A stretch of DNA of 64,000 nt, taken from the sequence record MG589383; one strand, given 5' to 3'. The DNA comes from Shigella phage phi25-307. Shown here piece by piece: positions 44,160-48,898 of the stretch; position 1 is the stretch's first letter; the number at the start of each line of letters is the position of its first letter. The notes below the pieces were generated by a model. The model searched no databases, had not been told where the DNA came from, and saw nothing but the letters and a program-made list of their open reading frames with translations. Position numbers and translations under genes: made by a program.

Positions 44160-44819
44160 ATGGCAACACCAAAAGTATCATTTTCGCCTAGTGATATTCT
44201 ATTTGGGTTGCTAGATCGTATTTTCAAAGATAACGCTACTGGAAAGGTTTTAATGTCTCGAGTAGCGGTAATTATTCTTTTGTTCCTAATGGCACTAATA
44301 TGGTACAAAGGAAGTATTTTGCTGGATTATTATGTAAGAGCTAAGTATGATACTTATACTGAAATAATCCAAAAAGAACGAGCTTTACGTTTTGAATCTG
44401 CGGCTCTAGAACAACTGCAAATAGTTCATATCTCATCTGGTGCAGATTTTAGTGCTGTGTATTCTTTCAGACCTAAAAACTTAAATTATTTCGTCGACCT
44501 TATAGCTTATGAAGGCAAACTACCTAGCACAATTTCTGAAAAGTCCCTTGGCGGATTTCCGGTGGATAAAACGGCCAATGAATATATAATTCATTTAAGT
44601 GGCCGTCATTTCTCATCTAAATCAGAATTTGCATTTTTGCCTACAAAATCTAAGACCGCCGAACTTTCTTATATGTATAGTTGCCCATACTTTAATTTGG
44701 ATAACATCTATGCTGGGACTGTGACGATGTATTGGTATAAGGGGAGTAATATACTTGAGGAGGATCGCTTAGCGGCTATATGCAACCAAGCGATCCGAAT
44801 ACTAGGAAGGGCTAAATAA
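44160..44819 (+). CDS. t: holin T (219 aa)
   Basis: Collinear with T4 holin (ISFSPSDILFG.LDR.FKDNATGKVL, YMYSCPYFNLDNIYAGT, RILGRAK); late promoter 44132-44139. Confidence 0.93.
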   Translation: MATPKVSFSPSDILFGLLDRIFKDNATGKVLMSRVAVIILLFLMALIWYKGSILLDYYVRAKYDTYTEIIQKERALRFESAALEQLQIVHISSGADFSAVYSFRPKNLNYFVDLIAYEGKLPSTISEKSLGGFPVDKTANEYIIHLSGRHFSSKSEFAFLPTKSKTAELSYMYSCPYFNLDNIYAGTVTMYWYKGSNILEEDRLAAICNQAIRILGRAK

Positions 44820-45092
44820 TTAGTTGTTAGAATACATCGCTAAATGACGATAAATATTTTCAAAACCTTCATTGAATTCACTAATCAGTGTTTTCTTTTC
44901 TTCGGCAGTTAAATTTGTAATTAGTTTTCTGAACGAATTCTGATTTAGCTGCCGACCATCTTTTTTAATTCCAATCTCATTCAAGAAACCGATGAAACTT
45001 GCTCGGTCTTCAACAATATCTTCCCTAGAGAATTTAATCAAAATAGAAGCAATAGTAATAATTTCACGTACGATTTCAATGTCTTTATTCAT
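44820..45092 (-). CDS. asiA: anti-sigma-70 factor AsiA (90 aa)
   Basis: Collinear with T4 AsiA (VREIIT.ASILIKFSREDIVE.RA.FI.FLNEIG, NEGFE); early promoter 45127-45156. Confidence 0.92.
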   Translation of the reverse strand: MNKDIEIVREIITIASILIKFSREDIVEDRASFIGFLNEIGIKKDGRQLNQNSFRKLITNLTAEEKKTLISEFNEGFENIYRHLAMYSNN

Positions 45093-45124
45093 AACGTTTT
45101 ATTCATTCCACTTAATTGATAGGA

Positions 45125-45158
45125 GTATAGTACCACTATCAGTGTTGATTGTAAACGG
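45125..45158 (-). promoter_or_regulatory. T4-type early promoter upstream of asiA
   Basis: Minus-strand GTTTACAATCAACACTGATAGTGGTACTAT. Confidence 0.5.
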
Positions 45159-45354
45159 CTTTTTCTACGCTTTTAACGTAATTGGTGTAGTCTTCCTGTT
45201 CGTACGAGTGTAAGGCCAAGAACGGAGCTAATAGTTCATTATAGACTAAAGCCTCACGCTCACGTTCGGCCTCTACTACGTTCTGAAGATTATGACTCAT
45301 ACTGTTCCTTATAACTATCAATGTAGTCCTGTATGTCGAAGAATGATATTTCAT
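45139..45354 (-). CDS. hypothetical small protein (71 aa as drawn; true start uncertain)
   Basis: ORF only; overlaps next ORF by 65 nt. Confidence 0.3.
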   Translation of the reverse strand: MKYHSSTYRTTLIVIRNSMSHNLQNVVEAEREREALVYNELLAPFLALHSYEQEDYTNYVKSVEKAVYNQH

Positions 45355-45589
45355 ATTCTAAGGCATTAAGAGCCTGTTCTTCAGTGTAGTCAGAACCAAA
45401 TACAATAGTGATTTCACCAGGTTTAGAATGACTGAAATCAACACTAAACTCAAGTCGAGAGCAGACTTCATCTTCCATATCTATGATAACACTACGATAC
45501 ACTTCTCGGTTAACCTGATAAAGCTCTGCAAGTTCTTCGCATCGAATAACAAGTTCAGTGGCAGGATTTTCTTTGATTTTAGTAAGCAT
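45290..45589 (-). CDS. hypothetical acidic protein (100 aa; start at internal ATG 45589)
   Basis: ORF only; weak SD. Confidence 0.35.
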   Translation of the reverse strand: MLTKIKENPATELVIRCEELAELYQVNREVYRSVIIDMEDEVCSRLEFSVDFSHSKPGEITIVFGSDYTEEQALNALEYEISFFDIQDYIDSYKEQYES

Positions 45590-45672
45590 AGTCTTTACCC
45601 TTATGTTTTTGTTTGCGTTTAGATTGAAGTTCTGATTTCTTCTTGTCCTTATGGACGGAAGCCTTATTGAAA

Positions 45673-45891
45673 TCATGTTTTGCTACAAAATTGTTCATAA
45701 TGCTTTATAACCTCGTTTAAACATTTGTCTGTGAAAGAAAACTTTTTAGCCACAGAACATTCGATAATGTGCTCTTTCAAATCTTTAGAGTCAGTATAAC
45801 CCATCTCAGTAATAAAGTGGCGAATTAAAGCTTTATTCTTATCATTAACAGAATTAAAATAATCTGCTTTAGAATCAATTATTCTCATCAT
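45673..45891 (-). CDS. hypothetical protein (72 aa)
   Basis: ORF in asiA-motA early block. Confidence 0.4.
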   Translation of the reverse strand: MMRIIDSKADYFNSVNDKNKALIRHFITEMGYTDSKDLKEHIIECSVAKKFSFTDKCLNEVIKHYEQFCSKT

Positions 45892-46156
45892 CTAATTTCC
45901 TTAATTGATATTGCAACGAGCCAATAATTTCTTCGTTCATTTTAATATACATGTCGCGCAAGAAAGGTTTTAACCCATCACGAATAATTGCTAATGTATC
46001 ACCTTTACATAAATTAACCAAATAAGGATGGTCTAAAGCATCCCAACCAGGCTGATTAGCATACATACCATAATTTTCTTCCATCATATGATTAAGACGT
46101 TTGATATCTTGGATACGTGATTCAATAGCATCTTTCTGGAGTTGTTTAATATTCAT
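45875..46156 (-). CDS. hypothetical acidic protein (93 aa); size compatible with Arn but not verified
   Basis: ORF; T4 Arn is 92 aa and lies in this block, but sequence identity could not be confirmed from memory. Confidence 0.4.
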
Positions 46157-46418
46157 TAATAAAGGTCCTCTGAATAAAGTTCTTTCTCGCTTCCGCCACG
46201 TTCAATTTAAACCTATTAGCTGCACATACTATAACACGTTGAACTTTTTGGTCATTATTCCAATAGCACGTTTGCCAACAGATTTCAGGAACTTCATTCA
46301 TTATATCATCAGCAGAATAATTATAACCGTAGGACTGGAATTTTTCTGCTAGACTTTCAGGAGTCTCACGAGACAAGGCCAAATCTAATAGCTCTAAACG
46401 TTCTTTAAATGATTTCAT
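46146..46418 (-). CDS. hypothetical protein (90 aa)
   Basis: ORF in asiA-motA early block. Confidence 0.4.
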
Positions 46419-46744
46419 TTAAACCATTCCTTAATACGTTGCCAAATAGATTTTTGTGCTTGTTTATTTACACCAATCGAACGAATAACTGGTTGTGACT
46501 GCTGATATTCTTTATAATCTTCTTTATAGATTTCGTAAGCGGCATCAACAAATGAACTGATCGCTGCCATGTAGTTTTTACGAAGGCCGAATGGTGCGTC
46601 ATTATTTTCACGAATAACCATATATTGGCCTGCTTTAATCTTTACAATTGTCCCTAAATAAGCCCCGTGGTACCAAATATCCCATCCTTCCTGAGTAGGT
46701 TCTGCACATTTACGAAGTTCGTTAATAATATTCAGCTTATTCAT
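46415..46744 (-). CDS. hypothetical protein (109 aa)
   Basis: ORF in asiA-motA early block. Confidence 0.45.
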
Positions 46745-46754
46745 TATGTATTCC

Positions 46755-47387
46755 TCACAGTACGTTAGTTACAAGGGTAATGATTTCTTTGGACACATTA
46801 GGGAAGTCAATGTAAGTATATTTACCACCGATCTTAATCTTAACATCATTTTCAAGAGAAGTAAACAGCTTTGATTCAGTTTCTGACATGTTATATGCAA
46901 ATATTCTAAGACAACCGTCTCGACGAATTTCGATCTGACGAATACCTAGAACTCGTTTTGCAAATCGAACTTCCAAGTTACTACGGTTTTCACCAATTTC
47001 TTTAACTTCAACTTTATCTTTAATATTTTCAAAAACAAAGTTTGCTAATTCATGCATTTCGGGAGTAACTCCACGTGCTTTTCTAGTGTTACGTTTCTGA
47101 AGAAGTTCTGGAGCATTTTCTTGGGCAAAGAGGTCTGCAGCTTTTTGGATAATATCCATTGCTTCGCCTGTTGCTATAAGTCCATCACCAGATTTTTCGA
47201 CTAAACCTTTCTTAATCAATACACCAATGTTAGAGTTAACAACCGATGCATTGTATTCCGCTTCCAGAGCTTCACGGACATTGGCAGCAGTGGTGAAGTT
47301 GTTCTTAATGATATAAACCATTATTGCAGCAGTTTTTTCATTCAGAGCGTTTTCGGAAGCTTTGATGATGTAAGCAACTTTAGACAT
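46755..47387 (-). CDS. motA: middle-transcription activator MotA (210 aa)
   Basis: N-terminal domain collinear with T4 MotA (MSKV.YIIKAS...LNEKTA, VVNSNIGVLIKKGLVEKSGDGLI.TGEA, AQENAPELL.KR.TRKAR); early promoter 47427-47454. Confidence 0.88.
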   Translation of the reverse strand: MSKVAYIIKASENALNEKTAAIMVYIIKNNFTTAANVREALEAEYNASVVNSNIGVLIKKGLVEKSGDGLIATGEAMDIIQKAADLFAQENAPELLQKRNTRKARGVTPEMHELANFVFENIKDKVEVKEIGENRSNLEVRFAKRVLGIRQIEIRRDGCLRIFAYNMSETESKLFTSLENDVKIKIGGKYTYIDFPNVSKEIITLVTNVL

Positions 47388-47424
47388 TTTATTTCTCCAA
47401 TTTGGTTGTTTTGTTTTGATAGGT

Positions 47425-47456
47425 CTATAATATCATGTTTGAAGCACATGTAAACT
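47425..47456 (-). promoter_or_regulatory. T4-type early promoter upstream of motA
   Basis: Minus-strand TTTACATGTGCTTCAAACATGATATTAT. Confidence 0.5.
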
Positions 47457-47475
47457 GTTTTGTGAGAAAAATGCA

Positions 47476-47496
47476 CAAAAGGGAGCCGAAGCTCCC
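47476..47496 (-). terminator. terminator downstream of gene 52 (GGGAGC-UUCG-GCUCCC, U-tract)
   Basis: Minus-strand hairpin followed by TTTTGTG; upstream of motA promoter. Confidence 0.55.
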
Positions 47497-47572
47497 TAAT
47501 CGTGTTTGTCCAACCAATACAGCCAAATCACTAGTGCAGCTATTGCACCGAGAAATCCTAAGGCTAGGGCAC

Positions 47573-48898
47573 TCAAAGTGCCTCCAAGTCTTTAGTGTAC
47601 TCTGTCACAACATCAGTAGACTTCCAATACTCATTTTCTTCTTTCTTAGCTTTAGCTTCTTCTGCCAGTTTACGTGCTTCGTCGGAAGTGATATGGAAGA
47701 TGTTAAGGCCTACCAGTTTATCGACATGTTCTTTATACATTTCGATTTGTGCTAGCTCTTCAGTCAAAGCTTTACGAGTCTTGCCCTGAATCACAATTTC
47801 GCCACTGATAACTTTTTTGATGAAGTGTGCCTTAGCAAAAGCCAGTTTAAATGCTTTTTCAGATTCAAGGATTTTGTTGTCAATACGTTTCTGAACGTAA
47901 GTCTTACGGACTTCAACAAAATCTTTGATTAAGTCCACTACGTTATCATAGACGGCTAATTTACCCTTTTCATTAATCACTGTGATGTTTTGTGAACGAC
48001 GTTCGATGAGACTAAAATCTTTCATGATTTTTTCATGACGTAGCTCTTCATCATCAGGAAGCGAGTACTCTTTACGGAACTTCACCTTAAACCCAAAGCC
48101 GTGTTCACCACAATCATCTTCCCATGAGATTAGACCTTTGTCTTCCAATGGGTCAAGAACCTTACTCACATACGTTTCACGGTCGAATTTATATGGGATT
48201 TCAGTTATCTGCATTTGAGTGCGAGATGTGAACTTATATGTTCCGTGAATCTCATAACGCCCATCAACTTCGTGTACTTCACCACGGAATTCCGGGAATT
48301 CAACTTTTGGCTTAGTGACATTTTTACCTTGAAGAGCTTGTAATACGGCCTTTTTTACCGATTTAAAACTATGAGGCAGAATATTTGTTGCGTAACCGGT
48401 TGCAATACCAGAGACACCATTCAAAAGAACTGTCGGAATAATAGGAAGATAGAATTTTGGTGGAATGTGTTCTTTATCTTCATGGGCTGGAGCATATTCA
48501 GTATCTTTATATACGTTATAGAAATTTTTACTTACACGAGCAAAAATATAACGAGATGCTGCAGCTTTTTGGACTGTTCGAGAACCAAAGTTGCCTTGGC
48601 CATCTAACAGTGGATAGTTGTTGTTCCATGTGTTAGCCATCAATGCACCTGCATCTTGTGCAGAAGATTCACCATGGTGATAACCTAAATCTGCAACACC
48701 GCCTGCAATTGACGCAAGTTTATGAAATTTTTCTTTATTACCACGAGCCAAATCTAACGCACGATGAACCACAAAACGTTGAACCGGCTTAAATCCATCA
48801 ATCATGTTTGGGATTGCACGGTTTTCAACGGTGTACATCGCGTATGCTAAGGCTTCGTTATCAATAATACTTTTTAGATTACGAGAATTCAATTGCAT
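47573..48898 (-). CDS. 52: DNA topoisomerase II medium subunit gp52 (GyrA-like, 441 aa)
   Basis: Size (T4 442 aa), synteny, GyrA/ParC-type N-terminal region with putative catalytic Tyr; not searched. Confidence 0.9.
   Translation of the reverse strand: MQLNSRNLKSIIDNEALAYAMYTVENRAIPNMIDGFKPVQRFVVHRALDLARGNKEKFHKLASIAGGVADLGYHHGESSAQDAGALMANTWNNNYPLLDGQGNFGSRTVQKAAASRYIFARVSKNFYNVYKDTEYAPAHEDKEHIPPKFYLPIIPTVLLNGVSGIATGYATNILPHSFKSVKKAVLQALQGKNVTKPKVEFPEFRGEVHEVDGRYEIHGTYKFTSRTQMQITEIPYKFDRETYVSKVLDPLEDKGLISWEDDCGEHGFGFKVKFRKEYSLPDDEELRHEKIMKDFSLIERRSQNITVINEKGKLAVYDNVVDLIKDFVEVRKTYVQKRIDNKILESEKAFKLAFAKAHFIKKVISGEIVIQGKTRKALTEELAQIEMYKEHVDKLVGLNIFHITSDEARKLAEEAKAKKEENEYWKSTDVVTEYTKDLEAL

Follow-up and report, generated by a model that had tools for sequence, protein, structure and literature searches.

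The stretch of DNA analysed here, a window of 64,000 nt from Shigella phage phi25-307 (record MG589383), contains between asiA and motA an uninterrupted block of small open reading frames (ORFs), all on the minus strand (45139-46744), which corresponds to the arn operon of the T-even phages. By megablast the region falls within Mosigvirus (the RB69-like T-even phages), AV118 and ATK47 being among the phages that match it at 97-98% identity, and six products of the block are exact matches of the phi25-307 proteins AYD79458-AYD79463. The flanking genes are recognised by Pfam: motA (46755-47387, minus strand), the first gene of the chain, matches MotA_activ (E 5.3e-39) and MotCF (E 3.2e-8) and is 51% identical to T4 MotA, and asiA (44820-45092, minus strand) matches AsiA (E 2.4e-32) and is 73% identical to T4 AsiA. 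The chain runs motA, arn.4, arn.3, arn.2, arn.1, DUF7230, arn, asiA.1. At every junction from motA through ORF1 the genes overlap by 4 to 26 nt or lie 10 nt apart, the sole larger separation being the 46 nt between ORF1 and asiA beyond the block, and a Shine-Dalgarno motif stands at normal distance before each start. An earlier description made from the letters alone (the sequence-only reading) had reported tightly packed, overlapping ORFs between asiA and motA, in the region where T4 keeps its host-takeover genes. Both statements are confirmed, the locus being syntenic with asiA.1-arn-arn.1-arn.2-arn.3-arn.4 of T4.

The same reading had considered none of the ORFs confidently assignable. In fact BLAST identifies five of the six as orthologues of T4 AsiA.1 and Arn.1 to Arn.4, and structure identifies the remaining one as Arn. 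The six ORFs do exist, but the genes number seven, one belonging to the DUF7230 family having been missed; moreover two starts had been placed too far upstream and ORF5 is a deletion remnant. The corrected starts, 45300 for ORF1 and 45589 for ORF2 (first read from 45676), follow from the PHROG alignments, which cover the long ORF1 from residue 19 and the long ORF2 from residue 30 onwards, from the homologues, which begin at the same points, and from the ribosome-binding sites, present only at these two positions among the start options. The shortened ORF2 leaves room that is occupied by the seventh gene. All block genes match PHROG families (E 1e-22 to 1e-53), and comparison with T4 and with the Gaprivervirus VR25 gave proportions of synonymous differences (pS) of 0.6-0.9, which are saturated, against proportions of nonsynonymous differences (pN) of 0.13-0.47. 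Because of these family matches and of a pN far below the saturated pS, the block ORFs are real genes under purifying selection. The remark that several products are acidic holds for ORF2 (net charge -15) and ORF1 (net -5), whereas ORF6 is basic and the others are near neutral.

ORF2 (45290-45589, minus strand; phi25-307 gp157, AYD79459) encodes a protein of 99 aa with 23 aspartate and glutamate residues against 8 lysine and arginine residues and an isoelectric point (pI) of 4.15. Its AlphaFold2 model (predicted local distance difference test score, pLDDT, 86.8; predicted template modelling score, pTM, 0.74) has a beta-alpha-alpha-beta-beta-alpha-alpha fold. Compared with 350,542 PDB chains, this model gave a sole match with E <0.001, namely 3WX4, the crystal structure of T4 Arn, on which it can be superposed with a template modelling (TM) score of 0.79/0.80, a root-mean-square deviation of 2.4 Å over 98 columns and a probability of 1.00. 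The runner-up matches had TM scores of about 0.3. At the level of sequence the link passes through an intermediate. A search of 1.84 billion representative proteins with a profile built from the ORF2 family reached a 91-aa protein, P0010 (E 4e-7), whose alignment with T4 Arn runs from end to end (33% identity, E 7e-11). The gene of P0010 has a 42-aa ORF, asiA and the holin gene t as neighbours, and when P0010 was searched against the window ORF2 was the sole match. With Arn and P0010 joined in one profile, hhalign matched the ORF2 family with 96.7% probability (E 3.4e-10, 87 columns); a syntenic 92-aa protein of a Klebsiella phage reached 93% (E 2.7e-7) against the same profile, and six other proteins of the block, used as controls, remained below 1%.

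On the grounds of this shared locus, Arn fold and intermediate-sequence link, ORF2 is the Arn of this lineage. It resembles T4 Arn (PDB 3WX4, PF22134) in its place between asiA.1 and DUF7230/arn.1, adjoining asiA/asiA.1 and downstream of arn.1, in its size (99 versus 92 aa) and in its strong acidity, and differs from it by being more acidic (net -15 versus -9) and by a longer C-terminal tail. By tblastn the T4-type Arn, whose matches are all at least 88% identical, occurs in 485 phage records and the ORF2 type in 177, with no cross-matches between the two. The assignment is not wholly new, since the record of the BASEL phage AndreasVesalius, a Tequatrovirus, already labels a protein of the ORF2 type 'Arn'. 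That allele (L009 1601-1915) is 78% identical to ORF2, and arn.1 is apparently absent from the annotation of this phage. Its occurrence in a Tequatrovirus shows that the allele moves between genera and points to an exchange of cassettes at the arn locus.

As a dimer, T4 Arn mimics DNA; it inhibits McrBC and binds H-NS (Ho et al. 2014, as cited in PMC12871103), and its action against McrBC is also stated in a recent preprint on T2 (bioRxiv 10.64898/2026.06.19.733364). The PUA-Cal-HAD defence system is likewise blocked by T4 Arn; the N70S substitution alone abolishes this activity, and a single residue sets the specificity (PMC12871103). The suggestion that the block contains a candidate DNA-mimic or anti-restriction protein is borne out for ORF2, which combines the Arn fold, the intermediate-sequence link, the position of arn and high acidity. 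From its predicted fold, charge and position, ORF2 most likely acts by DNA mimicry. It would be an acidic decoy made early in infection, binding and blocking a host DNA-binding defence or nucleoid protein. In being small, highly acidic and early it would resemble T7 Ocr and other phage DNA mimics, thought to be blockers of DNA-binding defence proteins; their folds are unrelated to that of ORF2, so this likeness would be one of function. The DNA of Mosigvirus, as known from RB69, is reported to carry arabinosyl-hydroxymethylcytosine and not glucosyl-hydroxymethylcytosine. Because of this, and because the sequence has diverged almost completely, the target of ORF2 may differ from those of T4 Arn.

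The seventh gene (45579-45698, minus strand) encodes a lysine-rich protein of 39 aa with a net charge of +8. Its match to Pfam PF23876 (DUF7230) scores 49.5 bits (E 4.6e-13), where the cut-off is 27; it also matches phrog_1359 (E 6e-22), and by tblastn it was found in 1847 phage records (Escherichia, Klebsiella, Salmonella, Vibrio and others), near full length in 1313 of them. The gene's own frame has a pS of 0.64 and a pN of 0.13, and in the other two frames pS does not exceed 0.16. The gene is 77% identical to a T4 ORF (L003 1584-1700, minus strand) that is absent from the NC_000866 annotation. It bridges arn.1 and arn and is well kept, although the adjacent Arn is almost unrecognisable. The N-terminal 20-29 residues of the protein also match four other PHROG families. 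Searches of PDB chains with its sequence and profile returned nothing at E 10. A likeness to the ribosome-rescue factor ArfA was dropped, as it had no HMMER support: the profile scored -1 bit against E. coli ArfA, shuffled copies scoring up to 12 bits.

ORF5 (46146-46418, minus strand) is a remnant of arn.3. Its product of 90 aa corresponds to residues 1-72 of Arn.3 (64% identity to T4 Arn.3), followed by 18 unrelated out-of-frame residues, and its stop falls 11 nt within arn.2, where the ancestral junction is a TAATG overlap. Relative to AV118 and ATK47, 199 bp are missing inside the gene; the span concerned measures 201 bp in the window and 400 bp in all 40 near matches listed from the phage collection. 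In the relatives a distance of 198-199 bp separates ATTGAAGAGTGGTGGAA from ATTGAACGTGGTGGAA, and the deletion flanks are direct repeats of 16-17 nt of which the window keeps a single copy, with the junction ATTGAA at 46206-46201 on the minus strand. Ten residues of Arn.3 are invariant in an alignment of 59 members, and eight of these (R84, H85, Q111, G112, F113, D115, R123 and Q135) are deleted or frameshifted in ORF5. According to a model of full-length Arn.3 (pLDDT 88.9), the lost part is the core of the conserved T4_Y16D domain (PF26092). A deletion of 199 bp, bounded by short direct repeats, has thus probably inactivated arn.3 in this phage. The same full-length model had no neighbour in the PDB (best TM <0.4), and in BFVD it matched only uncharacterised phage proteins.

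Other phages also carry altered forms of arn.3. In PhAPEC2 its product has 64 aa, and in P0016 its N-terminal module is duplicated in tandem. L007, a Tequatrovirus contig with 96% identity to T4, has in place of the N-terminal module an inverted copy of only 74% identity (2413-2760); the break lies at the RFK(L/M) codon boundary, the same as that of the deletion in the window, and the inversion yields an opposite-strand ORF of 104 aa, P0099, which is present on 7 contigs. Several viable phages have lost arn.3 or carry it rearranged, and the gene is evidently dispensable and recombination-prone. At the arn.4/arn.3 junction, an 'ori type 2 repeat' is annotated in ATK47 (L002 2303-2312) and AV118 has a perfect 9-nt inverted repeat, TTTAAATGA/TCATTTAAA.

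The remaining genes of the block agree with T4 in order, arn.1 to arn.4 having identities of 41-79% in BLAST and tblastn comparisons, and the same architecture is present in Gaprivervirus VR25 and in a Klebsiella Jiaodavirus. ORF6 (46415-46744, minus strand; 109 aa, pI 9.2; phrog_1594, E 1e-52) is arn.4, 79% identical over all 109 residues to translated T4 DNA (pS 0.70, pN 0.13); its Pfam name, Phage_T4_Y16F, comes via the L007 homologue. ORF4 (45875-46156, minus strand; 93 aa; phrog_1844, E 3e-40; Phage_T4_Y16C) is arn.2, with 41% identity to the Arn.2 of T4 and 61% to that of VR25. ORF3 (45673-45891, minus strand; 72 aa; phrog_4452, E 2e-39) is arn.1 and is 73% identical to translated T4 DNA over 71 residues, including 29 codons upstream of the annotated T4 start. 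ORF1 (45139-45300, minus strand; 53 aa; phrog_5245, E 7e-31) is AsiA.1-like. It shares the MSHNL start and the position of T4 AsiA.1 at a weak 30% identity, and its links to VR25 gp175 (E 8e-8) and to a Klebsiella phage homologue (E 7e-6) are firmer. The newer Pfam names T4_Y16D, Phage_T4_Y16C and Phage_T4_Y16F are taken from UniProt placeholders. When Pfam, NCBIfam and the PDB were searched by sequence, no functional match emerged for Arn.1, Arn.2, Arn.3, Arn.4, ORF1 or the DUF7230 protein, and no mention of PF26092 or DUF7230 was found in the literature. Arn.1, Arn.2, Arn.4, ORF1 and the DUF7230 protein are not acidic mimics, and nothing in the analysis spoke either for or against an anti-restriction or DNA-mimicking role for them. 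As a working guess, Arn.1, Arn.2, Arn.4, the AsiA.1-like protein and the DUF7230 protein would be accessory host-takeover or counter-defence factors co-expressed with Arn.

In T4 itself arn.1 and arn.4 appear to be annotated too short. T4 arn.1 is annotated with 43 aa, and the 29 codons upstream of it are open and conserved (L003 1807-1893; window 45805-45891; both minus strand; pS 0.64, pN 0.19); an upstream TTG start after GAAGGTG would give a protein of 72 aa as in the window. For arn.4, annotated with 68 aa, the 41 upstream codons (L003 2835-2957; window 46622-46744; both minus strand) are 85% identical to the window, with frame-specific conservation (pS 0.78, pN 0.10) and with ATA in T4 where the window has ATG. 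In the T4-like contig L007 an arn.4 of 109 aa has already been called.

The best promoter match of the region, a sigma-70 early-type site (TTTACA-16-TATTAT with TG; 10 of 12 positions), lies upstream of motA at 47427-47454 on the minus strand, just past the hairpin and T-run (47497-47480) which end gene 52. Transcription from this site would probably run through the block from early to middle infection, and the chain of overlapping starts and stops would probably be translationally coupled. A second promoter-like site (45127-45155, minus strand; TTTACA-17-TACTAT with TG), a consensus match alone, precedes asiA; it overlaps the 3' end of ORF1 (45139-45155) and extends into the 46-nt gap. No convincing terminator was found within the block and an Rfam search of the whole window returned no RNA family. 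All the genes are conserved, and RNA of the homologous T2 operon, from arn.4 through arn, is abundant (bioRxiv 10.64898/2026.06.19.733364).

The block is like the T2/T4 arn operon in its genes, their order, their strand and their tight packing downstream of motA, and differs from it in the truncation of arn.3 and in the arn.2/arn.1 region. In T2, ArcZ has been described as pairing with the 3' end of arn.2, and an RNase E motif as lying in a 70-nt region upstream of arn.1 (bioRxiv 10.64898/2026.06.19.733364). Instead of this 70-nt intergenic region, arn.2 and arn.1 of the window overlap by 17 nt. The T4 ArcZ-pairing sequence CCAGGGAAAT reads TTAAGGAAAT in the window (45880-45900, minus strand), where it also serves arn.1 as Shine-Dalgarno sequence; judged by eye, the window agrees with the T4 site at 7 of 10 bases. 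In place of the reported RNase E motif GCAUU the window has GCCAC (45808-45815, minus strand). Control of the T2 type by ArcZ may thus not apply to Mosigvirus. Moreover, because the upstream codons of arn.1 are open and conserved, the 70 nt upstream of T2 arn.1 would be coding sequence. The absence of the 39-aa gene from the T4 reference and the apparently too short T4 versions of arn.1 and arn.4 bear on the reading of ArcZ and RNase E control of the T2 arn transcript.

We consider that the block is, with a probability of about 0.75, the Mosigvirus version of the T-even arn operon, with ORF2 as a likely DNA mimic of the Arn fold and with an arn.3 inactivated by deletion. A number of results weigh against this interpretation. 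ORF2 had no match to the Pfam family DM_Arn (PF22134) even at E 10, and P0010, with 16 bits, falls short of the gathering score of 26 bits that T4 Arn exceeds with 186.7. The direct comparison of the ORF2-family profile with T4 Arn alone was not significant (hhalign, 3-18%), so that the sequence link needs the intermediate P0010. The AlphaFold2 model was built on only seven close sequences, and the PDB used in training AlphaFold included 3WX4. With regard to transcription, the promoter and terminator scans of the block did not rise above shuffled expectation, and no strict MotA-box promoter (TGCTTNA, 10-14 nt, TANNNT) occurs within 44700-47700, for which reasons we can only infer the timing of expression. 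In the whole window such sites number 17, against 6.0 +/- 2.5 in shuffles and above any of 100 shuffles; most are on the minus strand, as would be expected if other parts of the window contain middle promoters of the T4 type. Finally, the deletion in arn.3 could belong to a laboratory mutant or be an assembly error, since it is seen in a single assembly. It is unlikely, though somewhat less so than the alternatives that follow, that ORF2 shares just the Arn fold and has an unrelated function, for example a structural or regulatory one, at a locus that tolerates any small acidic protein. The identity of only 15-19% to T4 Arn and the missing Pfam match would fit such a case, and function is not safely transferable from Arn to ORF2, because in the Arn of T4 and T2 one substitution already shifts the target (PMC12871103). 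Nevertheless the homology to Arn is full-length through a syntenic intermediate, the proteins at the arn locus are strongly acidic in all five lineages compared (net -9 to -15), and the C-terminal motif Y/F-D/E-I-x-D-Y is conserved in the family alignment.

That all six or seven genes of the block encode anti-restriction factors is improbable. Many GenBank records do label Arn.1 to Arn.4 'anti-restriction nuclease', PHROG 4452 (Arn.1) is named in this way, the fold of Arn.3 is weakly like domains of 'large polyvalent proteins', and a counter-defence role for arn.1 to arn.4 has been speculated upon in the T2 preprint. However, the labels go back to the gene names, which reflect nothing more than map position, and not to experiments; the same preprint states the functions of arn.1 to arn.4 as unknown (bioRxiv 10.64898/2026.06.19.733364), and the searches for functional matches, including the fold search of the PDB with the Arn.3 model, were negative. 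The loss or rearrangement of arn.3 in several viable phages argues in the same direction. We regard as equally improbable that the truncation of ORF5 is an artefact of sequencing or assembly and that arn.3 of the phage is really intact. Among about 15 billion proteins the exact 90-aa product was found on one contig, that of phi25-307, the junction had no exact match in IMG/VR, and none of the 40 near matches listed lacks the 199 bp, all of which an artefact would explain. Against it stand the clean loss between direct repeats, such as slippage or recombination would give, and the independent truncations or rearrangements of arn.3 in other phages (P0099 of L007 and the 64-aa product of PhAPEC2). 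The deletion thus seems private to this isolate, an assembly error being the less likely origin.

The preferred interpretation remains that of a Mosigvirus arn operon, which is distinctive in its strongly diverged Arn, its private arn.3 deletion and its unlisted but widely conserved micro-gene, and is otherwise an ordinary and already named operon. Across the genera of Tevenvirinae the Arn-fold protein retains 15-37% identity, whereas its neighbours retain 70-79%. More tentatively, the arn locus may be a hotspot of an arms race, in which the ORF2-type allele of phages with arabinosyl-hydroxymethylcytosine might target a defence other than McrBC, and its co-transcribed and much better preserved partners Arn.1, Arn.4 and the DUF7230 protein might be undescribed host-takeover factors; we hold this wider proposal to be possible but doubtful.

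These results mean that an Arn, missed by Pfam and by most genome annotations, exists in RB69-like phages, and that an acidic protein of the Arn fold is present at this locus in at least four genera of Tevenvirinae. In addition, the DUF7230 gene, unannotated in the T4 reference, is present in more than 1300 phage genomes. The resulting set of Arn proteins offers natural variation in the specificity of a DNA mimic that, in its T4 form, is known to block at least three host systems (McrBC, H-NS and PUA-Cal-HAD).

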